Positions 26,016-45,117 of a DNA stretch of 64,000 nt are shown here, one piece after another. This DNA comes from an uncultured Thermoleophilia bacterium. GTDB lineage: Bacteria; Actinomycetota; Thermoleophilia; UBA2241. Positions within the stretch are counted from its first letter, which is position 1, and every line of letters begins with the position of its first letter. Under the pieces are notes generated by a model, which saw only the letters and a program-made list of their open reading frames with translations, made no database searches and had not been told where the DNA came from. The DNA lies in the NCBI GenBank assembly GCA_963831295.1, contig CAWHPR010000002.1, forward strand, positions 319,964 to 383,963. Reading direction: 5' to 3'. Made by a program: the position numbers and the translations under genes.

Positions 26016-26074
26016 ACTCGGTGACCTCCGCAGTGTCACTCGTTGACGACCGTCCGTCTCGGACAGGTCTGAAT

Positions 26075-28129: not shown

Positions 28130-28230
28130 GTGCGTCCTTTCATTCGCGGTCTGCGGCGGCGGCCGCCGCCCTCCCCATTCGCGGCGAGAGGGCGGCGGAC
28201 CTGCGAGGTCTGATCAGTGCCGGGCGCGCC

Positions 28231-29355
28231 TCACACGGCCGACGCCGGACGCTCGTCGGCGCCGTGAGCCTCGCCGAAGTAGGCGCGCACGAAGCGCACG
28301 AAGCGCCCGCACTCCTCGGGAGTGCCCGGGGTGACGCGGAAGTAGCCCTCCCTGCCGTTGATCGGCTTGATCGTCTTGAGGAAGATCTTCTCCATGTCCA
28401 TGGCCGCCCGGACGATCTCGGCGCTGGTCTTGCCGGTGACGCCGGCGTCGATGAGCATGTAGTTGCCGTGAGCCGGGAAGGGCTTGAGGCCGACGGCCTC
28501 GAGCTCCTTGGCGAAGACGTCCATCCAGTCGTTGTTGTACTCGACCTTCTTCGTGACCTCGCCACTGTCGAGGATCGCCTCGGCGGCGGCGATCGCCATG
28601 AGGTTCAGGTTCCACGGCAGGTACATGAGGTTGAAGGCCTCGACGAGCTCGGGAGAACCGACGACGTACCCGAAGCGGACCCCGGCGAGGCCGAAGGCCT
28701 TCGAGAAGGTGTGCGAGAGGAACACGTGCGGGTACTTCTTGACGAAGTCGACCTTGGCCGCGACCTGCGGGTGGTAGTCGAGGTACGCCTCGTCGATGCA
28801 GAGCGGGATGCCGAGCTCGCAGAACCTGGTGAGATCGGCGTCGTCGATGAAGATCCCGGTCGGGTTGTTGGGGTTGATGATGAGGATGACCTTGGTCTTG
28901 TCGTTGACCGCCGCCAGCATCCCCTCGACGTCGTACTGCAGGTCCTCTTCGCGCAGCGGGATCTGCACGGTCTTGGCGCCGCAGAGACCGGCGCGCGAGG
29001 GGAACATCTCGAACGTCGGGTTGGAGCAGAGGAACTCGTCGCCGGGCTGCAGGAAGATGCGCATCATCGCGTCGATGGTCTCCGACGACCCATTCGCCAG
29101 AGCGATGTTCTCGGCGGCCACGCCGTGCAGCGCGCCGAGCTTGGCGCGCAGCCGGTAGGCACGGTCGGGGTAGCGGTTGCCCCGCTTCGCCATGTCGACG
29201 ATCGCCTCGACGACCTGGTCCGACGGCGGCACAGGGTTCTCGTTGAGCATCATACGACCGCACTCGGGCTGCGCCCACGCCTTGTCGAGGATGGACGTGT
29301 TGTACTCAGGGGCGGTGAGGAGCCACGGCACGAACCTGTCTTTGATGTCGGTCAT
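28231..29355 (-). CDS. Class I/II PLP aminotransferase (HisC-like, substrate uncertain)
   Basis: LNENP, NRYP, NGSSE, NPNNPTG, DEAY, PLP-lysine motif TFSKAFGLAGVRFGY. Start at MTDIKD. Confidence 0.85.
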   Translation of the reverse strand: MTDIKDRFVPWLLTAPEYNTSILDKAWAQPECGRMMLNENPVPPSDQVVEAIVDMAKRGNRYPDRAYRLRAKLGALHGVAAENIALANGSSETIDAMMRIFLQPGDEFLCSNPTFEMFPSRAGLCGAKTVQIPLREEDLQYDVEGMLAAVNDKTKVILIINPNNPTGIFIDDADLTRFCELGIPLCIDEAYLDYHPQVAAKVDFVKKYPHVFLSHTFSKAFGLAGVRFGYVVGSPELVEAFNLMYLPWNLNLMAIAAAEAILDSGEVTKKVEYNNDWMDVFAKELEAVGLKPFPAHGNYMLIDAGVTGKTSAEIVRAAMDMEKIFLKTIKPINGREGYFRVTPGTPEECGRFVRFVRAYFGEAHGADERPASAV

Positions 29356-29380
29356 TCTCGCTGTCCTTTCGTCGCGGCGA

Positions 29381-30580
29381 TCAGGCGTCTGCGAGGCAGC
29401 TGCCCGCGAACGCGACCATCTCGTTGGTGGCCTTGGAGAAGGCATCCGCCGTCTTCACGAGCGCCGGATGGGTGTTGTATTCGTCGCGCGTGTAGCCGTC
29501 CTCTTCGTAGGCGCGCTCGAAGTACGGGATCCGCATGAGCTTGTCCATGACTTCCTTGGGCGGATCGACGGAGATGCGGTCCGCCTGGAAGGTGATGTCG
29601 TCGGCCGTCGGGAAGTTGATGAGCTCGTCGATGAGGCTCGGAGGGCAGGTGACCACGATGTCGGCTCCAGCCTTCTCCTCGAGGTGCCAGATCTTCGTCT
29701 TGCCGTCGACGACTGGCCCGAGGCGCAGGGAGCAGGAGAGCATCTTGCTCTGATAGCCGCCGTCCTTGACGAGACGGTACGCCTTCTTGAAGATGGCCAG
29801 CTCGGCCATGCGGACGTCGCCCTCGGTCACCTCGATGCCCTTCTCCTTGCCGGCCTCACGCAGACCACCGAGGTCGCCGTAGCGGGCCTCCATGTGCGTG
29901 ATCACCGAGCGCCACTTCGAGAGGTCGACGCCATCGGCCTTGGCCTTCTCGAGACCGCGCTTCACGGTCTTCGCGCAGTCCATGAGCTGCGGCAGGATGA
30001 AGGTGAGGGTGTTGTTGGTGGCGATCCCCTTGGCGGTGAGAGCCTCGATGACGTCGTAGCCCTCCTTCGTGCCGGGCACCTTGATCATCACGTTGGGGTT
30101 GATGGTGTGGATCTCGAGCGCCTGCGCGAGCATGGCGTCCTTGTCGAAGCAGCTCCGCGGATCGACCTGGCCGGAGAGGAAGCCTTCCTTGTGGCCGGAT
30201 GCCTCGAACAGGGGGAGGAACAGGTCGGAGCCCTGCTTGACGACCTGCTTGTACATCTGCCAGAAGAGGCCCTCGGTGTCGAGCCCGCCGGCCTCCTTGA
30301 GGATCTTCTCCGCCTCAGCCTTCCAGCGTGGCGGATCGTCCTGGATGGCCTGCAGCGACAGCGGGGGGTTGGTCGTGACGCCGCGGAAGAGCTGGCTCAT
30401 CGGATCGTCGGCGTTGTACATCCGCGCGAACTGGGCCTTGAGGACCTCGCGGTCGCCGGGGTCGGCTTTGGCGAGCATCTTCTTGTACCAGTTGTCGAGG
30501 ATGACCGGCGACGAGTCCCACCAGATCTCCATGCCGGGGCTGACGGCGACCAGGTCCTCCAACATGTTGCGTTCGTGCAT
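29381..30580 (-). CDS. tal: Transaldolase-family protein
   Basis: GVTTNP, SGQVDP, Schiff-base VMIKVPGT, NNTLTF. Confidence 0.85.
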   Translation of the reverse strand: MHERNMLEDLVAVSPGMEIWWDSSPVILDNWYKKMLAKADPGDREVLKAQFARMYNADDPMSQLFRGVTTNPPLSLQAIQDDPPRWKAEAEKILKEAGGLDTEGLFWQMYKQVVKQGSDLFLPLFEASGHKEGFLSGQVDPRSCFDKDAMLAQALEIHTINPNVMIKVPGTKEGYDVIEALTAKGIATNNTLTFILPQLMDCAKTVKRGLEKAKADGVDLSKWRSVITHMEARYGDLGGLREAGKEKGIEVTEGDVRMAELAIFKKAYRLVKDGGYQSKMLSCSLRLGPVVDGKTKIWHLEEKAGADIVVTCPPSLIDELINFPTADDITFQADRISVDPPKEVMDKLMRIPYFERAYEEDGYTRDEYNTHPALVKTADAFSKATNEMVAFAGSCLADA

Positions 30581-30636
30581 CTCTCCCCCTTAGGGATCGT
30601 TTCGACGGATTCAGGTCTGCGAACGGTCGGCCTCGC

Positions 30637-31452
30637 CTACGCCCTCGGCACCTCCCCGCGCCGTGCGGCCACCCGGTCTCCCGGGACCCGCTCACACACG
30701 ATGCAGTGGACGCCGAGCGACGTCAGCTCGTCGCGGATGGCTTCGTCGACGCCGTCATCGACGATCGCGGTGTCGACCCGGTCGAGCCCGCAGATGACGA
30801 CATCGGCCACCACGCCGATCTTGCTACGGTCGGCGAGCACGACGACCTCGCCGCGTGTCTGGTCGAGCATGGCGCGCTCCATGCTGGCGATACCGACCGT
30901 CGGGGTCGTCAGCCCTTCCTCGAGATCGAGGCCGTCGACACCCAGCAGCATGAGGCTGGCGTGGAACCGGCCGATCTGCTCGACTCCAAGGGGGCCGTCG
31001 ACCGAGTTCGAACGCGGCCGGTAGTGGCCGCCGACGAGGATCACCTCGAGGCTCAGGCCCTGCGATTCGGCCAGCGCCCCCGCGTTGTGCGTGATGACGC
31101 GCGCCTCGAGCGAGGGATCGACATGGCGCAAGACCTGCGCCGCCGTCGTACCGGCGCTCAGAAACACGGTCTCGCCGGGCCGGATGAGCGCCGCCGCAGT
31201 CTGGGCGATGTGGCGCTTCTGCTCGGCGTTGGCCGTCACGTTGTCGAGGTACAGAGCCTCCTCGACCATGCGCCGCCTGAGGACGGCGCCACCGTGCGTG
31301 CGCACGAGCACACCCTCGGCCTCGAGGCGCTCGAGGTCGCGGCGGATCGTCATCTCGGAGACGCGAAGATCGTCGCTCAGCGAGGAGACGCGCACGGCGC
31401 GCCGCTCCTGCAGCAGCTCCCTGATGCGCCTGCGACGCTGGGCCGGGATCAT
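30637..31452 (-). CDS. DeoR/GlpR-family transcriptional regulator (copy 1)
   Basis: HTH VSEMTIRRDLERLE...RTHGGA, GTT, LVGG, VLADRSKIG. Confidence 0.95.
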   Translation of the reverse strand: MIPAQRRRRIRELLQERRAVRVSSLSDDLRVSEMTIRRDLERLEAEGVLVRTHGGAVLRRRMVEEALYLDNVTANAEQKRHIAQTAAALIRPGETVFLSAGTTAAQVLRHVDPSLEARVITHNAGALAESQGLSLEVILVGGHYRPRSNSVDGPLGVEQIGRFHASLMLLGVDGLDLEEGLTTPTVGIASMERAMLDQTRGEVVVLADRSKIGVVADVVICGLDRVDTAIVDDGVDEAIRDELTSLGVHCIVCERVPGDRVAARRGEVPRA

Positions 31453-31518: not shown

Positions 31519-31561
31519 CACAAAGTCGCACATATTGTAACTGAGCCCTGGGGGGTGTCAA
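31519..31561 (-). promoter_or_regulatory. Housekeeping-sigma promoter with putative DeoR operator
   Basis: On the minus strand: TTGACA (31561-31556), 16 bp, TACAAT (31539-31534), then ATGTGCGACTTTGTG. Confidence 0.7.
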
Positions 31562-31728: not shown

Positions 31729-32544
31729 TCACCAGTCGGAGAAGCCCTCGTTGTACCAGATCTTCGAGGCGCCCTTCTTGGCGCGCTTGTTCCACTTCTT
31801 CGACTTCGGCTCGGCCTCGACGCGGGCCAGCAGCGTGTCCGCCTGCGCCTGGATGCGCGCGCGCATCTCGGGCGTCAGCGCCGGCACCTGCTCGCAGTGC
31901 TTCTTCACCTTCGGCAGGTTGAGCTGCGTCGCCGTGTACCAGAAGCCCCAGTCCTCGGCGAAGCGCCGCGCGACGTAGTCCATGTTGATCTTGCGCTCGT
32001 CGTCGGCGCCCAGCTCGCAGGTCACGAAGAGGTACTCGATGTCCTTGAGGTCCTTGTCGTTGATCTCGACGATCTGCAGCTTCTGCAGCAGGATGTCGGA
32101 GAGCGGCACGGACCAGGGATCCTTGTCGAGCCGGCCCGCGTAGTCCACCTCGTGACAGTAGTCGAGCTTGTCGAAGAAGACGTCGATCATGGGCACGGCG
32201 CCGGCGTAGTAGATGTGCCGGGTCTTGCCGGACATGACCATCGTCTCCTGGTCGCACTCGTAGCCCATGTCCTTCATGAAGTCGCGCATCTTGCTGCGAC
32301 CCTTGCCGTACGCCGCGTAGTCGATGTCGGTGAAGTAGCGCTCGCCGAGCCGCTCGAGCCGCGCGTACAGGTCGATCTGGTCCGGGAAGTAGTAGTGGAG
32401 CGCCAGGGGACCCATGACCCGCATCACGATGCCGCGCTTCTCCCCCTCTTCGACGAGCCGCTTGCCCTCCGCAAGAAAGACCTCGGGGCCCGGGTACTCG
32501 GCGATCGGGATGTCCTTCGGCAGGATGAACGGTTTCTGTGCCAT
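31729..32544 (-). CDS. Uncharacterised Pol-beta-like nucleotidyltransferase-fold protein (copy 1)
   Basis: RVMGPLAL, FTDID, IDVF give the G-x-x-A / DxD / third Asp layout. Paralog of 38466-39275. Confidence 0.7.
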   Translation of the reverse strand: MAQKPFILPKDIPIAEYPGPEVFLAEGKRLVEEGEKRGIVMRVMGPLALHYYFPDQIDLYARLERLGERYFTDIDYAAYGKGRSKMRDFMKDMGYECDQETMVMSGKTRHIYYAGAVPMIDVFFDKLDYCHEVDYAGRLDKDPWSVPLSDILLQKLQIVEINDKDLKDIEYLFVTCELGADDERKINMDYVARRFAEDWGFWYTATQLNLPKVKKHCEQVPALTPEMRARIQAQADTLLARVEAEPKSKKWNKRAKKGASKIWYNEGFSDW

Positions 32545-32729
32545 GGTGCCTCACGGCCTCCTTCTCGCGACTCGCCGCCGCGCACCCGCCGCGGTGACGC
32601 CGCCTCTCGCTGCGCCCGGCCCCCGCGGGGGCCGGGCCGGTTCACCGCTCGCGGAGCACCGGCTGGGCGCCGGCGGCCGCGATGCGGCCGCCGGCGCCCC
32701 CGCCGGCTCAGGCACGAGCTGTCGCGCGC

Positions 32730-34469
32730 TTACTCGACCGGGATCTCCTTGGCCACGGCCTCGAGCTCCATGCCCTGGTTCTTGCGGACGATCCAGGCGA
32801 CGACCCACACGACGATGGCCGCCACGTAGAGACCGCCCATGAAGAGGGCTGACTCCCACAGGTTGATGTAGTAGACCCCGTCGGGATCCCAGACGAACAT
32901 GTAGATGTTGAAGATCATGAAGGCGCAGTAGACGGCCGCCACGATCGCCATCCACGGGATGCCGGCGATCTCTCCCTTCGGCAGCGAGGAGCTCTCCCAG
33001 ATGCTGCGGGCGCGCCACTTCATGACCATGAAGGCGAGCCCGCTGCCGAGGAACATGATGATGATGCCGAACGTCGCATCGTAGGTGAAGAGCTTGACGA
33101 TCGTGACCCCGCGCTCCTCCACGATGGGCGTGTAGGCGTAGAGCGCCGCCACGATGGTCGACGGGATCGTCATCAGCACGAGGGCGATGACCGGGACGCC
33201 GCCGCTCGTCACCCTCGCAGCGGCTTCAGGCAGGATCCTGTCGAAGGCCGACGCGAAGATCATACGCGTCGAGGAGAGGAAGAGCGTCCCGAACCACCCG
33301 AAGAGCAGCAGCGAGATGGCGGCGATCAGGATGACCTGGAAGGCCGCGTTGGGCACGATCCAGGAGATCATCGCCGTGGGCGAGACGTAGTCACCGCCGA
33401 TCGGCGAGACTCCCCACCAGAAGGCCGCCATCGTGCCCATGAAGGCCTGGTAGCCGACCTTCCACGTCATGAGCCCGAGGAAGGCGAGCGCAATGAACGT
33501 GGGCACGAGGAGACCGCCGAGCATCTGGTAGATGTTCTTGCGGAAGTCCTTGGCGCCCCGCACCTCGCCGTAGAGCGTCGCCCCCCAGTTCGGCCACGCC
33601 ATCCAGAACAGCATGAGGGGGATGAGGGCCCAGGTGGCCCAGCTGAGACCACCCGAGAAGGTCGACTCCGGCATTTCCGTGCCCTCGCCGACGGCCTCGA
33701 TGGCCTCGAAGGCGCCGGCGTGGGACTGACCCTCAGCAACGACCATGTTGCCGTCGTCATCGTAGACGAACACGCCGTTCGCGTCCTGCTCGTAGACCGT
33801 GAGGTCGAGCAGCCCCGCCTCGCCGCCGTAGTACTTCTCGGCCGCGTCGTTGAACCGGTCCTTGAAGGTGTCGCCCGAGGTGACGAGCAGTAGGACGCCG
33901 CAGACGATCACGCCGGCGAGGCCGATCCACATGGCCCACTTCTGGAACCTCGCGTACGCCTTCATGCCTACCGCGACGAGAGTGGAGGCGATGGCGATGA
34001 CCACGAGGGACGCGATGAAGATGCCCGTCCGGCTCCCCAGCCAGTCGGCGGCGCTGTGCCAGCCGATGATCCGGAGGATCGGCTTGATGGTGGTCTGAAC
34101 GCCCATGTCGGCGTAGATCGGGGTCCAGAGCCAGAGGATGAACCACCAGCCCACGGCGGCGATCACGAAGCCCACCGAGCTGTGGAAGATGCGTGTCATC
34201 CATACGTAGTCGCCGCCGGCTCTCGGCATCGCCGAGATGAGGCCGGCGTAGACGATGATCTCGAGGACGATGAAGATGGCGGTGAGGACGATGGCCCAGA
34301 AGAGACTGCCTCCCGGGATGAAGGTCGCGTACGCGAACGACCAGATGGCGAGGAACAGGTTGACCGAGAAGAACGAGTAGCGGAACCCGTCCCCGCCGGA
34401 CCACCCCTTGACCAGGCCGCTGGCCTTGCGCACGAAGAGCGTCTGCTCCGGTGCGGCGTTTGTTGCCAT
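32730..34469 (-). CDS. APC-family amino acid/amine permease (copy 1)
   Basis: LFVRKASGLV, MPRAGGDYVW, about 12-14 hydrophobic helices, RMIFASAFDRILP. Confidence 0.88.
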   Translation of the reverse strand: MATNAAPEQTLFVRKASGLVKGWSGGDGFRYSFFSVNLFLAIWSFAYATFIPGGSLFWAIVLTAIFIVLEIIVYAGLISAMPRAGGDYVWMTRIFHSSVGFVIAAVGWWFILWLWTPIYADMGVQTTIKPILRIIGWHSAADWLGSRTGIFIASLVVIAIASTLVAVGMKAYARFQKWAMWIGLAGVIVCGVLLLVTSGDTFKDRFNDAAEKYYGGEAGLLDLTVYEQDANGVFVYDDDGNMVVAEGQSHAGAFEAIEAVGEGTEMPESTFSGGLSWATWALIPLMLFWMAWPNWGATLYGEVRGAKDFRKNIYQMLGGLLVPTFIALAFLGLMTWKVGYQAFMGTMAAFWWGVSPIGGDYVSPTAMISWIVPNAAFQVILIAAISLLLFGWFGTLFLSSTRMIFASAFDRILPEAAARVTSGGVPVIALVLMTIPSTIVAALYAYTPIVEERGVTIVKLFTYDATFGIIIMFLGSGLAFMVMKWRARSIWESSSLPKGEIAGIPWMAIVAAVYCAFMIFNIYMFVWDPDGVYYINLWESALFMGGLYVAAIVVWVVAWIVRKNQGMELEAVAKEIPVE

Positions 34470-34542
34470 AAGTTGACCCTCCTGTCGAATAGTGACTGCC
34501 GGCGCCATGGCGCCGCCCCCCGGGTGTCGCGCGTCGGCGCGT

Positions 34543-35490
34543 TCACCCCATGGTCAAACGGTACCGCTTGAGCTTGCTCTTGCCGTCGAGCTCCACGATC
34601 ACTCCCGACAGGGTCCCTTCAACGTAGGAGCTCCCGGGATTGATCGCGAGCGTGCGGCCGAGACGCTCGGCGGCACGGCTCTCGTGGATGTGACCGTGCA
34701 ACGAGAGGATGGGCTGGACCTCCTTGATCACCTCCTTGACGGCCGTGGAGCCGACGTGGGCCGTGTCCTGGCCCTGCACCGTCAGCGTCTCCCAGTCGAT
34801 CTTGGGCGCGATGTCGAGGTTGGTGTCGAACGGCGGCGCGTGCAGGCCGAGCACCAGGCGCTCGGGGCCGACCGTCGCCTGCGCGATGATGCCGAGGAGG
34901 CGCTCCTTGAGCGCCGGCTCGTCCTCTTCGCGCGGCGTGTCCCACGGCGTCAGGTTGGTCCAGCCGCTCGAGGCGAGCTGGTAGCCCTCGGGCAGGTCGA
35001 GCACGTTGCCCTCCCCGACCTGGATGTGCCGGGACTCAGCAAGGATGCCGTCGATGTCGTGGCGGTCGTCGTTGCCCGGGCAGACGATGCACTGCAGCCC
35101 GGTGCCCGCGAGGCGCTCGTCGGCCCAGGCGACCCAGTTCGCGACCGTCGTGCGCATCTGCTCGTGGAAGAGCTCATCGAGCTCGTCCGGGTCGCTCGTG
35201 TACGCGTCGCGCTCGGCGGCGCTCATGACGACCGGGTAGTAGCCGTGGTCTCGGATCGCCCTCTGGTTCTTGGCGAGGGCCTCGTCGCCCTCGAGCTCGT
35301 GACGGACGTCCTGCATGTGGAAGACGTATTTGCCCGATCCTTGGTCGATGATCGGCACCACGGCCTTGCCGGTCATGTCGCCGCCGAGGATGAGGACATC
35401 GGCTTCGTAGTGCTTGCCCGAGTTGATGAACTTGCGCCAGCACGCCTCGGAGCCGTGTACGTCGGTGGCGAAGAAGATCCGCGTCGTCAC
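34543..35490 (-). CDS. Icc-related calcineurin-like metallophosphoesterase (copy 1)
   Basis: FATDVHGS, GGDMTGK, PGNDD, HAPP, LHGHIHES, INPGS. Confidence 0.85.
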   Translation of the reverse strand: MTTRIFFATDVHGSEACWRKFINSGKHYEADVLILGGDMTGKAVVPIIDQGSGKYVFHMQDVRHELEGDEALAKNQRAIRDHGYYPVVMSAAERDAYTSDPDELDELFHEQMRTTVANWVAWADERLAGTGLQCIVCPGNDDRHDIDGILAESRHIQVGEGNVLDLPEGYQLASSGWTNLTPWDTPREEDEPALKERLLGIIAQATVGPERLVLGLHAPPFDTNLDIAPKIDWETLTVQGQDTAHVGSTAVKEVIKEVQPILSLHGHIHESRAAERLGRTLAINPGSSYVEGTLSGVIVELDGKSKLKRYRLTMG

Positions 35491-35647
35491 CTGCGCCCTC
35501 CTCTCGGGCTCGTCGTTCGTGTCATGGGCTCAGCTCCTTCCCTCACGATCGAGCACACCACATCATGTACCCAAAGCCCTCGCGCCTTCCAGTCCCGGCA
35601 GGGCCGCTGGGGCCACGCCGCTCCTGCCCGCTTCATTGGCGGGAGGC

Positions 35648-35672
35648 GGCCGCCGGGCCAAGCCCGGCGGCC
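35648..35672. terminator. Intergenic GC-rich hairpin (terminator or mRNA stabiliser)
   Basis: GGCCGCCGGGC-caa-GCCCGGCGGCC, 11-bp stem downstream of APC copy 2. Confidence 0.4.
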
Positions 35673-35732
35673 ACCTTGCCGGTCACCCCCCTCCGCGTGC
35701 TCCGGAGGACGCCGGCGGACGATGCCGCAGAC

Positions 35733-37373
35733 TCACTCCGGCGGCACCTCGAGGAAGGCGTAGTTGACGTCGATCCCCTTGCTCTTGTTGTACGCCCTGG
35801 TGATCCAGTACCAGACCAGACAGACGACGAAGACGCCGCCCACGATCACGTATGGGGTCGTGCCGGTCAGCCCGTAGGCATCGTTCGTGAGGAACAAGGT
35901 CACGGCGATGATGCCGAACACGAACCCGATGAACCCGAAGAGCGAGACCAGCGGGAACCCGCCGATGGTGTACTTCGCACCTGGCGACGCTTCGTACAGC
36001 GCCTTGGCGCGGAACGGCAGGAGCGCAGCCGCCAGCGTGCTGAGGATGAAGACATAGCCGCAGGCCAGCGTCACGCCGAGGGTCAGGCTGAACCACTGAT
36101 CCCAGTAGCTGTAGCCGATGATCACTGGGACGCTGAAGGCGAAGTAGAGCCAGTGCGCGACGGCCGGCGAGCGGAACCGCGGGCTGATCTTCGACACAAA
36201 GGCCGGAAGCGTGCGGTCCAGCGACATGCCCACCATGATGCGCGTCATCCCGATGTAGCAGTTACAGGTGATCTGCAGCGACGCCAGCAGGAAGCTGACC
36301 GCCGTCAGGATGACGATGATCGGGTTCGTCGAGATCACGATGGCGAACATGCCGGGGAAGGGCAGGACGCTGCCGATCCCGTTGCCGGAGTCGCTCACCC
36401 CGTAGTAGTAGGAGTGCGACACGGCATTGAAGAACTGGGTGCCGATCGCGCGCTCCTCGGCCCAGGCGATGAGGGCGAGGACGATGCCCACGCTGATCAT
36501 CGAGCCGACGATGATGAACATCTGGTTCTTGAAGACACGGGCGCCCTTGATCTCGCCGCCCTGCTGCACGCTGTACGACGCCCACTGCAGGCTCGTCCAC
36601 ACGATCGGGATCGCGAGCAGCGTGGCTCCGAACGCGAACTTCGGCAGCAGATTGACGCCGGCGTCGCTGACGTCCTTCTGGACCCAGCTGTAGTAATCCG
36701 GGTTGCCGTCGACGACGTTGGAGAAGTTGTTCATCGCGGTCGCGAACTCAGCCGGCGACGTGCGCAGGAACTGCACGAGCAGGATGACGATCAGGACGCC
36801 GGTCGCCGCAAACATGAAGTACTGCAGGCGCACGTAGTTCTTGAAGCCGGTGACGAGCAGCACCGCGATAGCGGCCGCGCCGATGATGCTGATCGTCACG
36901 ATGCCCTGCGCCGACTGCGCCCAGAGAGCGGCGTCGAGGAGCCCCTGGCTCTCGTAGTGCACGCCCAGACCCATGAAGAGCGGCGCGATACCGAGGCTTG
37001 CCTGGAGCCAGCCCGCGAGCGCGACCCACTGCAGGATCCAGATCACGAAACCGCTCATCACGACCGGGAAGCCGATGGCGCCGCCGAACACGCGGCTCTG
37101 GAAGACGTAGTCGCCGCCCGAGCGTGGCATCGCGGTCGCCAACCAGACGAAGGCGAGGGCGATCGGCAGCTCGAAGAGAATTGCGTAGAGACAGGCTTGC
37201 CACACCGAGACGCCCGGGAAGGCGGCCGGCGCCCACACGAACGTCCACGGGAAGATCACGCCCATGGTCAGGAAGTTGTACATGTACGCCGACCAGGGCG
37301 ACATCACCCTGGACAGCCCCGAGGCCTTGCGGCTGAAGACCTCAGGTTTCGCTGCGGTCACTGTTGCCATCAT
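35733..37373 (-). CDS. APC-family amino acid/amine permease (copy 2)
   Basis: VFSRKASGLSR, MPRSGGDYVF, many hydrophobic helices, YAFLEVPPE end (copy 1 ends AKEIPVE). Confidence 0.88.
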   Translation of the reverse strand: MMATVTAAKPEVFSRKASGLSRVMSPWSAYMYNFLTMGVIFPWTFVWAPAAFPGVSVWQACLYAILFELPIALAFVWLATAMPRSGGDYVFQSRVFGGAIGFPVVMSGFVIWILQWVALAGWLQASLGIAPLFMGLGVHYESQGLLDAALWAQSAQGIVTISIIGAAAIAVLLVTGFKNYVRLQYFMFAATGVLIVILLVQFLRTSPAEFATAMNNFSNVVDGNPDYYSWVQKDVSDAGVNLLPKFAFGATLLAIPIVWTSLQWASYSVQQGGEIKGARVFKNQMFIIVGSMISVGIVLALIAWAEERAIGTQFFNAVSHSYYYGVSDSGNGIGSVLPFPGMFAIVISTNPIIVILTAVSFLLASLQITCNCYIGMTRIMVGMSLDRTLPAFVSKISPRFRSPAVAHWLYFAFSVPVIIGYSYWDQWFSLTLGVTLACGYVFILSTLAAALLPFRAKALYEASPGAKYTIGGFPLVSLFGFIGFVFGIIAVTLFLTNDAYGLTGTTPYVIVGGVFVVCLVWYWITRAYNKSKGIDVNYAFLEVPPE

Positions 37374-37436
37374 TACCCCCAGTCATTGACGTGATGCAGC
37401 CCCCGCGCGAATCGCGGCGGCCGCCCCCCTTGGCCG

Positions 37437-38438
37437 TTATCCCGATGTCATCTGGTATCCGGCCACCTTGCCCGGCGCAAGCGTGAAGATGCACCCGCGG
37501 AGGATGCCTTCACCGTACTCGCTGCCGGGGTTGATCACGGTCGTGCGTCCGACTTTGACGAGGCCGCGAGACTCATGGATGTGTCCGGTGAGGAGCACAA
37601 GAGGCTGGTACTTCTCGACGATCTTGCGGACCGCCGTGCTGCCCGCGGGTGCGCTCTGCGGCACGCCGGCGATGACGACCGGCGTCGGCGGGTCCGTGGA
37701 CCAGTCCAGCTTGGGACAGTCGTCGAGCGTACAGTCGTACGGTGGAACGTGCATGTTGAAGATGGCGTTGGAGAAGTCGTCGATGCCCTCCACGGCCTTC
37801 TCGAGCAGGCCCCCCAGACTCTCTTCGTCGGTCTCCCTCGGCGTGACCCACGGCGTCGGGTTGCTGAACCCGCAGTTGGCCATGGGATACACGTCTTCAA
37901 GAACGACGACCCTCTCCTCGCAATTCACGACGTGCTCGCTGTTCGAGGCGTCGAGCAGGTCGAGCAGGTCCTGCGGGTCGTCGTTGCCGCCCGTCACGTA
38001 GCACTTCACCCCCGTTCCGTCCAGGCGCTCGTCGGCGAGCGCGATCCATCGCTCCAGGCGGGCATGGGCCTCGCGCCGGAACGCTTCGTCGATGTGGCTC
38101 TGGTCGCTCTGCATCTCGCGCAGGTCGTCTTCGCTCACGGTCACATGATAGAAGCCAAGCGTCTCGATGCGCTCCCTGAAGTCGTTGACGGCAGCCTCGC
38201 CGTCCAGGTGGTTGACCTCCTCCTGGAGGGTGACGCGGTAGTGCCCGCCGCCCTCGTCCACGATCGGGATGAGGTACTTGCCCATGATGTCGCCGCCCAT
38301 GATCAGGTGGTCGACCTTGTAGAACGCGGCGCCGTTGATGAACTTGCGGTAGGTGCGCTCGGAGCCGTGGATGTCGGTCGCGTAGAACAAGCGCACCCGC
38401 TCGCCGCCGTCGCCTTCCTTCTTCTTCCAGAATGCCAT
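37437..38438 (-). CDS. Icc-related calcineurin-like metallophosphoesterase (copy 2)
   Basis: YATDIHGS, GGDIMGK, GGNDD, HVPP, LTGHIHES, INPGSEY. Confidence 0.85.
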   Translation of the reverse strand: MAFWKKKEGDGGERVRLFYATDIHGSERTYRKFINGAAFYKVDHLIMGGDIMGKYLIPIVDEGGGHYRVTLQEEVNHLDGEAAVNDFRERIETLGFYHVTVSEDDLREMQSDQSHIDEAFRREAHARLERWIALADERLDGTGVKCYVTGGNDDPQDLLDLLDASNSEHVVNCEERVVVLEDVYPMANCGFSNPTPWVTPRETDEESLGGLLEKAVEGIDDFSNAIFNMHVPPYDCTLDDCPKLDWSTDPPTPVVIAGVPQSAPAGSTAVRKIVEKYQPLVLLTGHIHESRGLVKVGRTTVINPGSEYGEGILRGCIFTLAPGKVAGYQMTSG

Positions 38439-38465
38439 GGACCTGCCGCCTCTCCCGTCTACCGT

Positions 38466-39275
38466 TCAGTCGATCTCGTTGTACCAGCGCTTCTTGTCGC
38501 CGATCTTCGCGCGCAGCTTCCACTTGGTGCCCTTGGGATAGTCGTCCATCGCGCTCAGCACCACGGCGATACGTTGTGACACGACCTTCTTGTCGTTGTC
38601 GTCGAGATCCAGATGCGGAAGGTACGCCCGCACCTTGTCGAGGTTCATGGTGGTGGTGCGCCACAGACCCCACTCCCGAGCGCAGAGCTTGGCGATGCGC
38701 GCCGAGTTGATGTGATCGTCGTCGGCGGCGATCTCGTGCTCGCGCAGCAGCATGATCGTGTCGATGATGTCCTTCTCGTTGATCTTCACGATCTGCATCT
38801 TCTCGAGCAGCAGCTCCGCCAGCGGGATGGTGGGCGAGTCGACCTCGAGCCTTCCCTTCCACGGGATCTCGTGGCAGAAGTAGAGACGGTCCATGAACAC
38901 GTCGACATGGATGTGCTTGCCGGGGTGGTTGAAGATGAGCCGGCCGCCCTCGGCGTGGAAGGCGTTGATCTCGAGGTCCTCGTCATAGCCGAGCGACACG
39001 AAGAGCTCGCGGATCTGCCGGTCCTGCTTGCCGTACCCCGCGAAGTCGATGTCGGTGTAGACGCGGTTGAGCTTGGCCTGGATGAAGCCGAATTCGGGGC
39101 AGTGGTGATGGAAGGCCAGCGCTCCGATGATGCGCAGTGGGACACCCGCGGCGTCGCCGGCTTCGACCACACGCAGCGCCTCGTCTTCGAAGACCTTGGC
39201 CAGGTCGGCGTCGGGGGTACCGACGCCGACTTCGTCACCGACCTGGCCGGCCGGCTGGGTGACTTCATCGTTCAT
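38466..39275 (-). CDS. Uncharacterised Pol-beta-like nucleotidyltransferase-fold protein (copy 2)
   Basis: RIIGALAF, YTDIDF, VDVF. RBS GGGAGG before ATG 39275. Confidence 0.7.
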   Translation of the reverse strand: MNDEVTQPAGQVGDEVGVGTPDADLAKVFEDEALRVVEAGDAAGVPLRIIGALAFHHHCPEFGFIQAKLNRVYTDIDFAGYGKQDRQIRELFVSLGYDEDLEINAFHAEGGRLIFNHPGKHIHVDVFMDRLYFCHEIPWKGRLEVDSPTIPLAELLLEKMQIVKINEKDIIDTIMLLREHEIAADDDHINSARIAKLCAREWGLWRTTTMNLDKVRAYLPHLDLDDNDKKVVSQRIAVVLSAMDDYPKGTKWKLRAKIGDKKRWYNEID

Positions 39276-39351: not shown

Positions 39352-40263
39352 CTACACCGTCGCGAGCCACGTAGGGTACTCCGGGTCGCCGGCGTTGCCC
39401 CGCAGCCGGTCGAGACGAGCGTTGCCGTACTCGCGGTAGTCGAAGTCGAGCTTGGACACCTGCTCCTGGATGAACGCCCAGATGCTCCACCACAGGTCGG
39501 CGACGATCTTGTGCAGGAGCATCCGGTGGAACCGGTGCTCCTGCATCTCGCCGCAGTACCGGGTGGCGATGAGGCGCTCCTCGTCGCGCGAGAGCGGGTG
39601 CTCCACACAGAAGTCGCCGAGGTCGAAGTACGGGTCGTTCATCCCGCCGTACTCCCAGTCGATGAGCCACATCCGGCCGGCGTCGTCGAGGATGAAGTTC
39701 TCGGACAGCAGGTCGTTGTGACAGGCGACAGGGCGCGGCATGTCGCGCTCCATCGCCTGTTCGATCTCGGCGCCGATGGCCATGATCCGCGGCCAGTCAG
39801 ACGGGAACCAGGCGTTCGCCTCGCCGGCCATCCGCAGGTAGTCGCGAATCATCGGGAACACGCTCGTGTCGTTGGTGAAGGCGGCCGTGTCGTGGTACGT
39901 CCTGATGACGTCCACCACCTTCTCGAGCCGCTCGGGATGACCGGCCAGGGTGTCGGGATGCATCGTCTCGCCGCGGATGAAGGGCACGACCGTGCACTTC
40001 TCGGGCTCGAGCACGTGCAGCAGCGGCGGCGCCACGCCCGCGGCCGCGGTCGACCGGTGATTGCCGAGCTCCCGCTCGCGGTCGATGAACGCGTCCGTGC
40101 CGGCGCCGGGGATGCGCAGCACGTACTTCCCGCCCCGCCCCCCGTCGACGGTGATCATGTAGTTGTGGTTGGTGATGCCCCCGCCGATCTCCTCGCACTC
40201 GACGTGCTTGCCGCGCCAGTCGTCGATGCGGCCGATGGCGGCCTCGGGTGTCAGCCGCGTCAC
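39352..40263 (-). CDS. Choline/ethanolamine kinase-like phosphotransferase
   Basis: GGGITNHNY, YVLRIPG, Brenner motif CHNDLLSEN, LIDWEYGG, YFDLG. Start overlaps the mtmB-like stop (GTGA). Confidence 0.88.
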   Translation of the reverse strand: MTRLTPEAAIGRIDDWRGKHVECEEIGGGITNHNYMITVDGGRGGKYVLRIPGAGTDAFIDRERELGNHRSTAAAGVAPPLLHVLEPEKCTVVPFIRGETMHPDTLAGHPERLEKVVDVIRTYHDTAAFTNDTSVFPMIRDYLRMAGEANAWFPSDWPRIMAIGAEIEQAMERDMPRPVACHNDLLSENFILDDAGRMWLIDWEYGGMNDPYFDLGDFCVEHPLSRDEERLIATRYCGEMQEHRFHRMLLHKIVADLWWSIWAFIQEQVSKLDFDYREYGNARLDRLRGNAGDPEYPTWLATV

Positions 40264-41642
40264 GAGGCCGGCACCTCGAGGCCCATGCCGGCCAGCTCGC
40301 TGCGGACCTCCGCGATCGTGCGCAGGTACTCCTCGTTCACGATCCGCTTCGTCTTCATGTCGTACACCTGCTGGAACGTGAGGCCCTTGTCCGGGTCCTT
40401 CAGCTTGTCGCCGAACAGCGGGAACAGTCTCTGGGCCAGAGGCTCCGCCTCGGCGCGGGTGAGCTTCGCGGTCGCGAGACCGATCTCCGCGTGGAACTTG
40501 TGGTCGTCGGGCACGAGCGAGTCGGGCTGCACGGCCATGGACGGGTGACCGGAGAAGACATTGCCCCCGGAGGTCACGACGGCCAGCATGTAGCAGGCCA
40601 TCTCGTAGTGGTACTGCTTCGTGCCCGAGCCGCCGCCCAGGTACGGCAGGTTCACCATGGGGTAGCCCATGTTGCGACCGATCGCGGCGTTGGACATCGC
40701 GATCGCCCAGATGAGGGGCTTCGTCGAGCTCAGGTGCAGTTTGCTGTGCAACGGCGCGTTGTAGTGGTAGCTGCCGCGGAAGATGAGGTTGCCCATGATC
40801 ATGTAGGCGGTCGCCTGCACGGCGATGCCCTCCGCCCCGCCGGCGTAGCCGCCGAAGAGGGGCGTGGACGTGGAGCCGATGTTGGCGCTGAGGCTGTTGT
40901 AGAAGGCCACCTTCTGCAGCGCCTCGTAGCCGACCACCATCTCGGAGAGAAAGTCGATCAGGAAGCCGTCGCTCGGACGCAGGCCGAAGTCGGGATGACT
41001 GGCGGCGAACATCGAGGCCGGCTGCGAGGCGGCTGAGATGCCGTTGATGATCGGCAGGCCGGCACGCCCCGAACGACGGATGCCCTCGCGCGCCAGCCGC
41101 ACCGTCTTGCAGGCAGCAAGGACCTCCTGCGGCGAGCGCACGCGCGCGTCCTTGCCGCGCAGATGCAGGATGGACGGCACGCTCACGGAGTCGACGATGC
41201 TGTACGAGGCCATCATCTCGACGGTGTCGAGGTAGACCTGCTCATCGGTCGTGTAGATGCCGCCGCCGACGTGCACCCACGGACGGTCGTCCGTGGTGTC
41301 GGGGCGGCGGCCGTACATCGCCTTGCGCTCGCGGCCCTCGCCGAAGACCGCGCTGGTCGGACACTGACCGCAGGCAGTGAGGACCTCGTCGTGGGTGAAC
41401 TCCATCACACGGTTGGTCTCGGGACAGTAGGCCCCAGCCTCGGCGATCAGGTCGACGGCGGCCCGGAAGACGCGGTCAGTGAGGTCGTCGTCAGTATTGA
41501 TGATGGTCTGCTTGTCCCACTTGACGCCGTGGCGCGCCAGCAGCTCGCTGAGCTTCGGCACGTAGCGCTTCATGTAGTAGTCGGTCTCGGAGATGAGCGG
41601 GCCGGACTCGGCGCGCTCGAACACCTCTGTCAAGTCGATCAT
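40260..41642 (-). CDS. mtmB: MtmB-family (monomethylamine) corrinoid methyltransferase, pyrrolysine-free
   Basis: ERAESGP, YCPETNRVMEF, RSGRAGLP, STPLFGGYAGGAEG, GSGT. No in-frame TAG. Confidence 0.82.
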   Translation of the reverse strand: MIDLTEVFERAESGPLISETDYYMKRYVPKLSELLARHGVKWDKQTIINTDDDLTDRVFRAAVDLIAEAGAYCPETNRVMEFTHDEVLTACGQCPTSAVFGEGRERKAMYGRRPDTTDDRPWVHVGGGIYTTDEQVYLDTVEMMASYSIVDSVSVPSILHLRGKDARVRSPQEVLAACKTVRLAREGIRRSGRAGLPIINGISAASQPASMFAASHPDFGLRPSDGFLIDFLSEMVVGYEALQKVAFYNSLSANIGSTSTPLFGGYAGGAEGIAVQATAYMIMGNLIFRGSYHYNAPLHSKLHLSSTKPLIWAIAMSNAAIGRNMGYPMVNLPYLGGGSGTKQYHYEMACYMLAVVTSGGNVFSGHPSMAVQPDSLVPDDHKFHAEIGLATAKLTRAEAEPLAQRLFPLFGDKLKDPDKGLTFQQVYDMKTKRIVNEEYLRTIAEVRSELAGMGLEVPAS

Positions 41643-41677
41643 GTCGTGCTCCCTGAAAGTCGGGGTCGCCTGGACGG

Positions 41678-42325
41678 TCAAGACACCAGCTGTGCGGACA
41701 CGCTCACGGCCTCGTACGCCGAGCCGGCCCAGCCGTCGGCGCCGATGGAGTCGGCCCACTCCTTCGTCGTGGCGCCTCCGCCGACGAGCACCTTGTACTT
41801 GTCGCGCGTGCCCTGGTCGCGCAGCGCTTCGATCACGTCCCGCTGTCCGACCAGCGTCGTCGTGAGGAGCGCGGACATCGCGATGATGTCGGCGTCGACC
41901 TCCTTGGCCTTGTCGACGAACTGGAAGAGGTCGACATCGATGCCGAGGTCCCAGACCTCGAACCCCGAGGTCTCGTAGAGGAGCCTGAGGATGTTCTTCC
42001 CGATCGAGTGAAGGTCGCCCTTGACGGTGCCGAGGACGACCTTGCCCTTCTTCGGGCCCGCGCCGCCGCTCTCCTTGATCTTCGGCTCGAGCACGCTCAT
42101 GGCGGCCTGGAAGGCGAGCGCCGCCTGCATCAGCTCGGGCAGGAAGATCTCCTCGCTCTCGAACTGCTCGCCGATGACATTGAGGCCCGGCAGGAGCCCC
42201 TCGTCGATGATCGCTTTGGCGTCGACGCCTGCGGCGAGGGCCTCGTCGACGGCGCCGAGCACGCCGCCTTCGTCCTGGTCGATCACCGCCTGCTTGAGCT
42301 GCCCGAAGATCTCTGCGTCCGTCAT
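41678..42325 (-). CDS. Methyltransferase cognate corrinoid protein (MtbC/MtmC-type B12-binding)
   Basis: IFLPELM, LGTVKGDLHSIGK (DxHxxG), SALLTTT, VGGG. Confidence 0.95.
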   Translation of the reverse strand: MTDAEIFGQLKQAVIDQDEGGVLGAVDEALAAGVDAKAIIDEGLLPGLNVIGEQFESEEIFLPELMQAALAFQAAMSVLEPKIKESGGAGPKKGKVVLGTVKGDLHSIGKNILRLLYETSGFEVWDLGIDVDLFQFVDKAKEVDADIIAMSALLTTTLVGQRDVIEALRDQGTRDKYKVLVGGGATTKEWADSIGADGWAGSAYEAVSVSAQLVS

Positions 42326-42403
42326 TGGATGCTCCCTTGATCCGTGTGATCCCGCTTCACGACCGCACCCGGTCGTGTCTTTCACCGCCGACCCTGTCCG
42401 CCG

Positions 42404-43858
42404 CTACGCTTCGGCGACCTCCAGGGGCGCAGCGTCGCCGGCGACGAGCCCGGGGAACCGGTCGCGGATGCGCCGGTCGAGCTCAACGTCCCAGACTGCC
42501 GGGTTCGACTGCGAGAGGAGACGCCGCGCCTCAGTGAGGGCGCGCTCGTGGATGTCGGGGCGCCCGGCGTCCTCCCATTGGGCGCGCATATCGCGGGCGG
42601 CCAGCCTCGGCAACACGGCCGTCGTCTTCATGCGCGCCCTCGTGTGCCCGCGGCTCATGTAGCCGCCGCCCGGCCCGACCGCGACGATCTCGTCGATCGC
42701 CAGGTTCTCCTCGCTGAACTCGAGCCCGCGCCACGCGCGCTTGTCCATCAGCGCGATCTCGTTGTCGATCACGCACTTCGCGAAGTCGAACGCCATGAGC
42801 GAGCTCAGGAGCCCGCCCATGTTGAGAAGGGTCGCCCCCGCCGACACGGCCAGCAGCGTGTTCATGCCGGTCTCGAAGCCCGACTGCGCGTCGTTCGCGT
42901 GGGCGTTCGTGAGGCCGACGTAGCCGCCCGACGGCACGCCGTAGAAGCGGGCCAGCTGCGCCTGGGCCGCGATGAGGATGCCCGTCTCGACGGCTCCTGG
43001 CGCGTAGGCCCCCGTCCGCATGTCGGCGACGGTCGGCAGACTCGCGTAGATCACGGGCGTGCCCTCGCGGACCATCTGCTGGAAGGCGGTGATCGCGAGA
43101 TACTCGGCGTTGCCGACGACCAGGCAGCCCATCAGCGTCATGGGCGCGGTGAGGCCCGCGTTCGGCACGACCGTGGTGTAGACCGGCAGCCCCTGCCCGG
43201 TGAGCCACATGACGGCCTCCGTCGATTCGACGTCCATCGTCAACGGGCTCACCATCGGACAGTAGTGGTGAGTGATCAACGGCCGCTCCCGGTAGGCGTC
43301 CGGGCCACCGGCGATGAGCTCACCCAGCTCGACGACCTGGCGCAGGTCGTCCATGCTCGGCGTGTTGCTGCGCACGGGCTTCAAACAGTTCTTGAGCGCC
43401 GGGTAGAACCGGCTCAGGCTGAGTTGTCCTTCCGGCGCGTCGTCGGCGAGCGTCGAGATACTGAAGACGTCGAAACCGGGGAGCTCGTTGATCATGTAGG
43501 CGATGGCGGCGATGTCGCCGGAGGTGGCGCGCCGCTCGACCCCCGTCACGGGATCGACGACGTTGGGTGCCGAGGAGCCGGTCACCACGACGGGGCCGTC
43601 GTCGGGGATCGTGCGATCGAAGCGCGGGTCGCGCCCGCGGAAGGTGAAGCTCGCCGGCGCCATCGCGCGATAACGTTCGACCACGTCGGCCGGCAGCCGC
43701 ACGAGCCCGGTCTCCCGCTCGACACGGCAGCCGTGCCTGGCGAAGATCTCGCGCGCCTCAGTGCTGTGCACGAGGATGCCGGCCCTTTCGAGGACCTCGA
43801 GCGACGCCTCGTGCGTCCGGCCCACCTGGGCCTTGGTGAGCAGCTCCGCGAATCTCAT
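42404..43858 (-). CDS. mttB: MttB-family quaternary-amine/methylamine corrinoid methyltransferase, pyrrolysine-free
   Basis: HEASLEVLERAGI, CPMVSPL, AGLTAPMTLMG, GLTNAH, GGLLSSLMAFDFAK, GPGGGY. No in-frame TAG. Confidence 0.9.
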   Translation of the reverse strand: MRFAELLTKAQVGRTHEASLEVLERAGILVHSTEAREIFARHGCRVERETGLVRLPADVVERYRAMAPASFTFRGRDPRFDRTIPDDGPVVVTGSSAPNVVDPVTGVERRATSGDIAAIAYMINELPGFDVFSISTLADDAPEGQLSLSRFYPALKNCLKPVRSNTPSMDDLRQVVELGELIAGGPDAYRERPLITHHYCPMVSPLTMDVESTEAVMWLTGQGLPVYTTVVPNAGLTAPMTLMGCLVVGNAEYLAITAFQQMVREGTPVIYASLPTVADMRTGAYAPGAVETGILIAAQAQLARFYGVPSGGYVGLTNAHANDAQSGFETGMNTLLAVSAGATLLNMGGLLSSLMAFDFAKCVIDNEIALMDKRAWRGLEFSEENLAIDEIVAVGPGGGYMSRGHTRARMKTTAVLPRLAARDMRAQWEDAGRPDIHERALTEARRLLSQSNPAVWDVELDRRIRDRFPGLVAGDAAPLEVAEA

Positions 43859-43862
43859 TGCG

Positions 43863-45071: not shown

Positions 45072-45117
45072 GTCGCTCTCTCTCCCTCGCACCCCCGCAG
45101 CACCGCGCTTCGTTCGT

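Follow-up and report, generated by a model that had tools for sequence, protein, structure and literature searches.

Two diverged copies of a near-obligate unit of APC permease, metallophosphoesterase and nucleotidyltransferase-fold protein in an uncultured Thermoleophilia bacterium

Among the described systems closest to the locus studied here, AmtB-GlnK-GlnD combines an ammonium channel, a PII protein and a Pol-beta-type uridylyl/adenylyl-transferase with a metal-dependent removing domain. The Pol-beta fold is also able to adenylylate hydroxyls of small amine-bearing molecules, as in LnuA and ANT(2'')-Ia. MenT1 modifies a macromolecule, LnuA and ANT(2'') modify small molecules, and FKRP is a LicD-like phosphotransferase. 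In the case of metallophosphoesterases, MPPED2 is a nucleotide phosphodiesterase, and aq_1956 and TT1561 are uncharacterised. Here we describe a unit composed of a nucleotidyltransferase-fold protein (NT), a metallophosphoesterase (MPE) and an APC-superfamily permease (APC). No characterised system matches this trio, and the unit is undescribed: as the first-pass annotation had stated, none of the three families could be assigned to a characterised system, and literature searches for the NT + MPE + APC gene combination found nothing.

The window, i.e. the whole 64,000-nucleotide stretch that was analysed, holds two diverged copies of one conserved three-component uptake unit consisting of APC permease, MPE and NT. 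The six genes are the following.

38466-39275, minus strand: NT1, Pol-beta-fold nucleotidyltransferase-like protein, 269 aa, module 1
37437-38438, minus strand: MPE1, calcineurin-like metallophosphoesterase, 333 aa, module 1
35733-37373, minus strand: APC1, APC-superfamily permease, 546 aa, module 1
34543-35490, minus strand: MPE2, metallophosphoesterase paralog, 315 aa, module 2
32730-34508, minus strand: APC2, permease paralog, 592 aa, module 2 (true start perhaps a few codons downstream)
31729-32544, minus strand: NT2, nucleotidyltransferase-like paralog, 271 aa, module 2

All six open reading frames were confirmed on the minus strand, with a third-position GC of 0.89-0.96. The NT1 start at 39275 is the ATG chosen by the earlier reader; an alternative GTG lies at 39281. 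Reading along transcription, the genes are NT1, MPE1, APC1, MPE2, APC2 and NT2, thus NT-MPE-APC-MPE-APC-NT, the same duplicated order of kinds that the first-pass annotation had given as NTase2-MPE2-APC2-MPE1-APC1-NTase1. Its description of diverged paralog pairs for all three gene types was borne out by BLASTP between the paralogs, with identities of 36% for NT (E 5e-51), 41% for MPE (E 4e-78) and 24% across the full length for APC (E 1e-30). The shared motifs it had named were also recovered, namely FSRKASGL/FVRKASGL in the permeases and ATD(I/V)HGSE, GGD, GNDD and GHIHES in the esterases. Long open frames had hinted at APC-MPE fusion proteins; translation shows a stop after the permease, and this candidate was rejected as a high-GC artefact.

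Across genomes, the distributions of NT and MPE are almost the same. In the 301 Actinomycetota genomes both occur in an identical set of 41 (NT-only 0, MPE-only 0). In Thermoleophilia both were found in 32 of 121 genomes, with one NT-only and one MPE-only genome, and in Chloroflexota in 26 of 151, with seven NT-only and one MPE-only. The Fisher p values of 1e-51, 6e-27 and 1e-21 for these three sets overstate independence, as the genomes are related. At the level of genes, 41 of 49 NT genes have a same-strand MPE within 300 bp, and 35 of 53 MPE genes have a same-strand APC of this subfamily within 5 kb; the APC subfamily is confined to NT/MPE-positive genomes. Four gene orders were found between lineages, and the trio is kept together in each. 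In related genomes the paralog classes always co-segregate as two sets, NT1/MPE1/APC1 and NT2/MPE2/APC2, and NT2 orthologs of 80-92% identity come after MPE2-APC2 there. In three loci (L012, L019, L032) module 2 lacks its own NT and NT1 is in the same locus, so that one NT stands with two MPE-APC pairs.

The trio is thus a near-obligate functional unit, co-inherited in two bacterial phyla. As the three genes are nearly always inherited together, they therefore constitute one working system. From the window, the trio had been proposed to be an ancient functional unit retained in two diverged forms, and rare co-occurrence elsewhere had been named as an observation that would refute this; the co-segregating paralog classes and the almost identical phyletic patterns of the three families, with near-obligate co-occurrence, support the proposal.

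In the case of MPE, Pfam gave weak matches to Metallophos, Metallophos_2 and Metallophos_3. The residues that define the calcineurin-like superfamily (D22, H24, D50, N152, H230, H286, H288) are invariant, and among 16 MPEs the metal-site motifs DxH, GD, GNDD, H, GH and GHxH are all invariant, with motif III reading GNDD instead of the GNHD/E of the superfamily. The motif TPWxTPRE is also invariant in the family, MPE2 shares the invariant motifs of MPE1, and many non-catalytic residues are kept unchanged in the same 16 proteins. The AF2 model of MPE1 (pLDDT 93) has aq_1956, TT1561 and MPPED2 as Foldseek neighbours (E 4e-12 to 3e-7, identity 13-15%), and a sequence search of MPE against the PDB returned aq_1956 alone (E 0.02). 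With an extra insert, MPE is twice as long as the small single-domain enzymes of the YfcE/MJ0936 type, and it scores 20-22 bits against their TIGR00040 cutoff of 56. MPE is a predicted cytoplasmic enzyme whose binuclear metal site is intact and belongs to the phosphodiesterase-like GNDD type.

For NT1, the AF2 model (pLDDT 86) gave Foldseek matches that all lie within the NTase superfamily, in agreement with the fold claimed earlier. The hallmarks of the Pol-beta superfamily, i.e. the hG[GS/A] turn, [DE]x[DE] and a third carboxylate on a mixed beta-sheet, are present in NT. G51, D75, D77 and D125 vary little or not at all over 46 diverse clusters, and the G...DxD...D site is intact. Further family-wide invariants are K159, D169, D172 and the basic, Trp-rich C-terminal PK..W..R...G....WY tail, and many non-catalytic residues are invariant in these clusters as well. 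By its modelled fold, NT is a cytoplasmic Pol-beta-fold nucleotidyltransferase and a putative enzyme. Its family comprises ~2,700 clusters at 50% identity, and profile searches against Pfam, NCBIfam, PADLOC and PDB sequences assigned no family to it. The profile PF14907 (NTP_transf_5, gathering threshold 31.2 bits) gave 17.3 bits for NT2, no match for NT1 and weak matches in 3 of 23 NT members. The source genome encodes a third NT-like domain, as part of a fusion with a Fic (protein-modifying) enzyme. Distant NT paralogs without MPE have unrelated, uninformative neighbourhoods.

The best Foldseek match of NT is the MenT1 toxin (E 1e-3, TM 0.36, ~10% identity), with LnuA, ANT(2'') and FKRP as further neighbours. 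The trio could accordingly be read as a MenT/AbiEii-like toxin-antitoxin or RNA-end module, in which NT would extend tRNA/RNA 3' ends, MPE would reverse or heal them, and the link to the permease would be incidental. In this direction would also point the helical motif K...KD..D of NT, which we take to resemble the C-terminal motif of AbiEii, and the healing of RNA ends by MPE domains in Pnkp. However, PADLOC gave nothing for NT, and the AbiEii profile PF08843 (DUF1814) is essentially negative, with 1 of 23 NT members at E 0.094. NT is 52-56% identical between the two phyla, Actinomycetota and Chloroflexota, and stands inside catabolic operons, unlike mobile toxin systems, and the phyletic distribution of the permease subfamily is tied to that of NT/MPE. 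Membership of NT in a toxin-antitoxin system had been named beforehand as a finding that would refute the functional unit; these profile results and the low TM of the MenT1 match speak otherwise. We consider a module of this type very improbable and, given the gene context and the profile results, rejected the toxin-antitoxin and defence readings.

The permeases match AA_permease_2 (PF13520) with 52 bits for APC1 and 47 bits for APC2 (cutoff 27), and their hydropathy shows 11-13 segments, within the 10-14 membrane helices of the APC superfamily. APC1 carries FSRKASGL at the N-terminus and EVPPE at the C-terminus, and APC2 carries FVRKASGL and EIPVE. In the subfamily, the corresponding end motifs are F-x-R-K/R-A/S-S/T-G-L (59 of 61) and E-I/L/V-P-x-E/D (61 of 61), and distant members have them too. 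FxRKASGL was dropped as a special mark of APC1 and APC2 alone, since it characterises the permease subfamily as a whole.

Both trio copies lie within a DeoR-headed operon that is predicted to serve N-methyl removal from choline-type compounds. The flanking features of this island are listed below.

39352-40263, minus strand: choline/ethanolamine-kinase-like kinase (PF01633, 104 bits), directly upstream of NT1
40260-45912, minus strand: DeoR regulator, homoserine-kinase-like APH kinase, MttB-family methyltransferase, corrinoid protein and pyrrolysine-free MtmB homolog
45988-45960: promoter-like site beside the 40260-45912 gene block
24594-31452, minus strand: second DeoR, divergent transaldolase-like protein, HisC-like aminotransferase, transketolase and MtbB with in-frame TAG
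31561-31534: promoter-like site beside the 24594-31452 gene block

The genes at 40260-45912 parallel MthK/MthB/MthC (PMC12155760) and also MtqB (PMC13044021). The island is predicted to encode corrinoid choline/methylamine demethylation with kinases, and the operon's tools are kinases, MttB-like, MtmB-like and Pyl-MtbB methyltransferases and one corrinoid protein. Most likely, APC1 and APC2 import two different members of the choline-type substrate series. A choline-kinase-like gene stands before NT1 in most Thermoleophilia loci. In Chloroflexota, the trio occurs with DMGDH-like flavoenzymes, and NT heads a catabolic operon (NT-CBS-DMGDH-like-TAL-kinase). Other trio neighbourhoods contain arginase, amidase/C-N hydrolase, creatinase-like and deacetylase genes, and the trio was also found without any catabolic partner.

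These contexts bear on the possibility that the cargo itself is processed, similar to group translocation. NT would then nucleotidylylate the compound taken up, or a phosphate ester of it, and MPE would cleave the phosphodiester or pyrophosphate, thereby trapping or activating the cargo. Parallels exist, as the Lic pathway makes CDP-choline and LnuA and ANT(2'') adenylylate hydroxyl groups, the latter two being fold neighbours of NT together with FKRP. MPE has the GNDD motif that phosphodiesterases like YfcE typically carry, most Thermoleophilia loci have a choline-kinase-like gene next to NT1, NT is first in the Chloroflexota catabolic operon, and phosphorylated intermediates are expected in the island (PMC12155760). 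However, in the arginase, C-N hydrolase, creatinase-like and deacetylase contexts, or where there is none, the likely cargos have no common hydroxyl or phosphate. Moreover, a single NT may go with two MPE-APC pairs, the non-catalytic invariants of NT and MPE span module types that necessarily differ in cargo, and a make-then-break cycle that lacks a coupling to transport wastes NTP. Processing of cargo appears unlikely. The more specific suggestion of a LicA/LicB/LicC-like substrate activation could not be upheld, given the unrelated nitrogen pathways beside the trio, the lack of a shared hydroxyl/phosphate handle on the likely substrates, and the Pol-beta fold of NT, which is not that of LicC.

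MPE might also be a catabolic phosphodiesterase for imported phosphodiesters (glycerophosphocholine, glycerophosphoethanolamine; cf. GpdQ), with the amino alcohols passing to the kinases and NT being an unrelated helper. MPE-APC is indeed the tightest link and occurs also without an adjacent NT, the MPE motifs are of phosphodiesterase type, and the operons are headed by regulators of the DeoR/GlpR type, which usually sense sugar or glycerol phosphates. Yet the perfect phyletic lock of NT and MPE in the 301 Actinomycetota genomes and the presence of the trio in guanidino/polyamine-type contexts are left unexplained, MPE does not match GpdQ in sequence, and the proteins nearest to it in fold are uncharacterised. 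Overall, we regard this role as quite improbable.

Because the same trio serves unrelated nitrogen-compound pathways, and because some genomes have one NT for two MPE-APC pairs, we infer that the target of NT and MPE is a constant one, distinct from the cargo. The non-catalytic invariants in NT (46 clusters) and MPE (16 proteins) and the conserved permease ends also count for a constant target. The Fic-fused NT-like domain and the nearest folds of NT, the macromolecule-modifying MenT1 as well as LnuA and ANT(2''), were counted in favour of the mechanism proposed next. Our best guess, tentative as it is, is that reversible nucleotidylylation by NT/MPE controls the permease; of the readings considered, a writer and an eraser acting on the transporter fit the evidence best. 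NT would attach a nucleotide monophosphate to the permease, with the invariant Ser/Thr of the RKAS/TGL motif as a possible acceptor, or alternatively might make a small nucleotide signal. MPE would hydrolyse the phosphodiester made by NT, and jointly the two would turn organic nitrogen cation uptake on and off, in the way that GlnD/GlnK control AmtB. Against this, we know of no metallophosphoesterase that takes nucleotides off proteins. Also counted against it were the position of the N-terminal motif near a basic segment of ordinary APC permeases, where it may be structural, the Chloroflexota NT at the head of a catabolic operon, which also suits a pathway enzyme, and the small-molecule O-nucleotidyltransferases among the nearest NT folds.

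A bolder and rather unlikely possibility is that the trio is a new transport machine, i.e. an APC-fold permease that could not work without alternating nucleotidylylation by NT and hydrolysis by MPE. Such a cycle could run on the invariant cytoplasmic ends of the permease, making it an NTP-driven or NTP-gated form of a secondary-transporter fold, or on the cargo at the exit, where nucleotidyl transfer would achieve group translocation. If true, the strict phyletic lock would stem from mechanistic dependence instead of mere regulation.

Three families without a characterised member are thus joined in one near-obligate unit, whose hosts are abundant Actinomycetota and Chloroflexota of soil, peat and groundwater. 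It is found near genes for scavenging organic nitrogen from choline, methylated amines, guanidino compounds and polyamines. Solving the chemistry of NT and MPE would give a function to thousands of 'hypothetical' genes, would explain how these hosts control or power the uptake of nitrogen-rich cations, and could uncover a new coupling of nucleotide chemistry to a secondary transporter.

Compared with known systems, MPE is nearest in fold to aq_1956/TT1561 (PF14582) and MPPED2, but differs from them by an extra sheet/helix insert of ~80 residues and TPWxTPRE. As in LicA/LicB/LicC/LicD, a choline kinase homolog adjoins a transporter and a nucleotidyl-transfer enzyme; in contrast, LicC has a sugar-nucleotidyltransferase (GT-A-like) fold and NT a Pol-beta fold, LicB is an EamA/DMT transporter and not an APC, the Lic pathway has no MPE, and the trio is found also away from choline genes. 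LnuA and ANT(2'')-Ia are similar to NT in size and fold, but they are resistance enzymes, have neither a phosphoesterase nor a permease as partner and show no significant sequence similarity to NT. With MenT1/MenT3 and AbiEii (DUF1814), NT shares the Pol-beta core and a C-terminal helical domain that contains a motif of the K...KD..D type; unlike these, it has MPE and APC partners in place of an antitoxin and is conserved in catabolic operons, neither sporadic nor mobile.

The island, with its kinase beside an MttB-family enzyme and a corrinoid protein, is like the MthK/MthB/MthC/MthA choline (phosphocholine) demethylation of Eubacterium limosum (PMC12155760), and like MtqB of Methanococcoides, a pyrrolysine-free MtmB homolog acting on quaternary amines (PMC13044021). 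Transport in those systems is by an EamA protein, and NT and MPE are both absent from them; they account for the context of the island, not for the trio.

In the case of AmtB-GlnK-GlnD, the differences are that the trio has no PII protein, that its eraser is a separate calcineurin-like MPE instead of an HD domain, and that its transporter is an APC permease instead of an Amt channel; the two systems are unrelated in sequence, and the modification in the trio is hypothetical. Nevertheless, both bring together a transporter for a nitrogen source, a Pol-beta-fold nucleotidyltransferase and a metal-dependent phosphohydrolase, the writing and erasing of a mark on uptake being, for the trio, what we propose.

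Six genes follow one another on the minus strand at 31729-39275 by GC3-based gene calling and ORF listing, in agreement with the duplicated module claimed there by the first-pass annotation; the motifs quoted for the permeases and esterases are likewise present in the sequences. Each of two diverged modules comprises a small Pol-beta-fold nucleotidyltransferase-like protein (NT), a metallophosphoesterase (MPE) and an APC-superfamily permease (APC):

38466-39275, minus strand, NT1
37437-38438, minus strand, MPE1
35733-37373, minus strand, APC1
34543-35490, minus strand, MPE2
32730-34508, minus strand, APC2
31729-32544, minus strand, NT2

The pairs are true paralogs. In pairwise comparisons, identity was 36% between NT1 and NT2 (E 5e-51), 41% between MPE1 and MPE2 (E 4e-78) and 24% across the full length between APC1 and APC2 (E 1e-30).

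A genome scan gave 446 NT relatives in species-representative genomes. The best 80 of these belong to Thermoleophilia and Anaerolineae/Chloroflexota MAGs, and the window's proteins were mapped onto their loci by tblastn. Among these best 80, the commonest Thermoleophilia arrangement was DeoR-kinase-NT1-MPE1-APC1, while the second module was arranged as MPE2-APC2-NT2, often followed by a Pyl-type mtbB. In the case of Chloroflexota, APC-MPE-DeoR was divergent from an operon starting with NT-CBS, CBS being a stand-alone four-CBS protein found directly after NT at 17 loci. NT1 always occurred with MPE1 and APC1, and NT2 always with MPE2 and APC2; at three loci (L012, L019, L032) module 2 lacks a dedicated NT, although NT1 is present at the same locus. 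A 3.4 kb contig (L024) with DeoR-kinase-NT1-MPE1, 77% identical to Thermoleophilia genes, lies in a Deltaproteobacteria-labelled MAG bin, probably through a binning error.

Phyletic patterns were taken from unbiased whole-genome searches in three samples. NT and MPE occurred together in 32 of 121 Thermoleophilia genomes (one with NT only, one with MPE only; Fisher p 6e-27), in 41 of 301 Actinomycetota genomes (none with either alone; p 1e-51) and in 26 of 151 genomes of one Chloroflexota class (seven with NT only, these being weaker matches, and one with MPE only; p 1e-21), although these p values overstate independence because the genomes are related. A same-strand MPE lay within 300 bp of 41 of 49 NT genes, and all 29 genomes with the APC subfamily (E<=1e-20) were NT/MPE-positive. 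The gene orders seen were NT-MPE-APC, MPE-APC-NT, APC-MPE-NT and NT-APC-MPE; such shuffling with the trio kept together is classic evidence for functional coupling. Altogether, the trio is a nearly obligate unit.

The NT proteins matched no family in curated-family profile searches and no PDB sequence. The AF2 model (pLDDT 86) shows a Pol-beta nucleotidyltransferase core and a helical domain, and Foldseek gave weak superfamily-level matches alone (E about 1e-3, TM 0.3-0.4) to MenT1, JHP933, LnuA, ANT(2'') and FKRP. At 50% identity the family numbers 2,738 clusters with E<=1e-3 and 851 at the stricter E<=1e-30; more than 4,400 sequences from a metagenome collection are all annotated as hypothetical. 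Across 46 diverse clusters, the catalytic residues G51, D75 and D77 are invariant and D125 nearly so; the helix motif K159...K168-D169..D172 and the C-terminal tail PK..W..R...G....WY are also invariant. The profile searches, the operon context and the conservation of NT across phyla (at 52-56% identity) all contradict a toxin-antitoxin or RNA-end role of the trio's enzymes.

In MPE, all metal-binding motifs of the calcineurin-like superfamily are invariant across 16 diverse homologs, as is an additional motif, TPWxTPRE. Motif III is GNDD and not GNHD/E, thus resembling YfcE-type phosphodiesterases. The nearest folds to the AF2 model (pLDDT 93) are aq_1956 and TT1561, both proteins without assigned function, followed by the nucleotide phosphodiesterase MPPED2. 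MPE could be a GpdQ-like glycerophosphodiesterase, but this would leave NT unexplained.

Both permeases match Pfam AA_permease_2 above threshold. Their subfamily carries an N-terminal F-x-R-K/R-A/S-S/T-G-L motif (59/61 sequences) and ends in E-I/L/V-P-x-E/D (61/61). These invariant motifs lie on the cytoplasmic ends and persist in members at mere 25-30% identity.

In the window, two operons contain the modules and their neighbours, with a promoter-like site ahead of each of two DeoR genes. The first runs from DeoR through a homoserine-kinase-like APH kinase, an MttB-family methyltransferase, a corrinoid protein, a pyrrolysine-free MtmB homolog and a choline-kinase-like kinase to both trio modules. 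The second comprises DeoR, a divergent transaldolase-like protein, a HisC-like aminotransferase, transketolase, an MtbB whose Pyl position is an in-frame TAG, a HAD hydrolase and PPK2:

45960-45988, minus strand, near-consensus sigma-70-like promoter upstream of the DeoR heading the first sub-operon
40260-41642, minus strand, pyrrolysine-free MtmB homolog (PF05369, 223 bits), adjoining the corrinoid protein
31534-31561, minus strand, near-consensus sigma-70-like promoter upstream of the DeoR heading the second sub-operon
26075-30580, minus strand, transaldolase-like protein, HisC-like aminotransferase (250 bits to hisC) and transketolase
24594-26015, minus strand, MtbB (dimethylamine methyltransferase); TAG 24957-24959 is residue 356, the pyrrolysine position; Dimeth_Pyl (Pfam) 612 bits when read through
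22829-24535, minus strand, HAD phosphatase (phosphoglycolate-phosphatase-like) and PPK2 polyphosphate kinase, after mtbB at the operon's end

In E. limosum, choline is phosphorylated by MthK and phosphocholine is then demethylated by an MttB-family enzyme (PMC12155760), and MtqB, a non-Pyl MtmB homolog, demethylates tetramethylammonium and choline (PMC13044021, 2026). These precedents make stepwise demethylation of choline-type compounds the best reading of the island. The transaldolase-like protein, HisC-like aminotransferase and transketolase recur with kinases in both phyla (also at locus L075, 14163-18858). Their recurrence points to an undescribed pathway that would lead from a phospho-amino-alcohol (perhaps phosphoethanolamine) through a phospho-aldehyde to pentose-phosphate metabolism. 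Possibly, the HisC-like transaminase would convert phosphoethanolamine to glycolaldehyde phosphate for the transaldolase-like enzyme and transketolase.

Elsewhere the trio's setting differs. In Chloroflexota, two DMGDH-like flavoenzymes replace the corrinoid enzymes, together with kinases, an aldolase and an aminotransferase; these DMGDH/sarcosine-dehydrogenase-like enzymes (L075 2719-5148 and 11547-14147) stand beside choline-kinase-like genes and occur at 26 of the 80 loci. Other Thermoleophilia families have arginase-family, C-N hydrolase, creatinase-like M24 and deacetylase-family neighbours, and in one further family a TetR regulator is the sole neighbour. That the cargo is nucleotidylylated by NT and then cleaved would fit the resemblance to LnuA and ANT(2''), the adjoining kinases and the fact that NT comes first in the Chloroflexota operon, but is weakened by this diversity of contexts. 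NT and MPE thus probably do not act on cargo.

A third NT-like domain in the window's genome (G000 contig C4 240413-241246; locus L081 8196-10304) is fused to the C-terminus of a 702-aa Fic protein of the SoFic type. Fic proteins are protein-modifying enzymes. Many related genomes show the same pattern, with split NT matches in frames of about 700 aa. In NT and MPE, many non-catalytic residues are also invariant across module types. Taken together, the diverse settings, the shared NT, these residues, the permease ends and the Fic fusion favour a constant target, e.g. the permease or a nucleotide signal.

PDB sequence and literature searches found no characterised member of the NT, MPE or APC subfamily, and the literature no described system built from the three. 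We rate NT-MPE-APC as a real, undescribed three-component system. NT would write and MPE erase a nucleotide mark, together acting as a switch on the constant target, for example the permease. This proposed writer/eraser switch would be analogous to GlnD/GlnK/AmtB.
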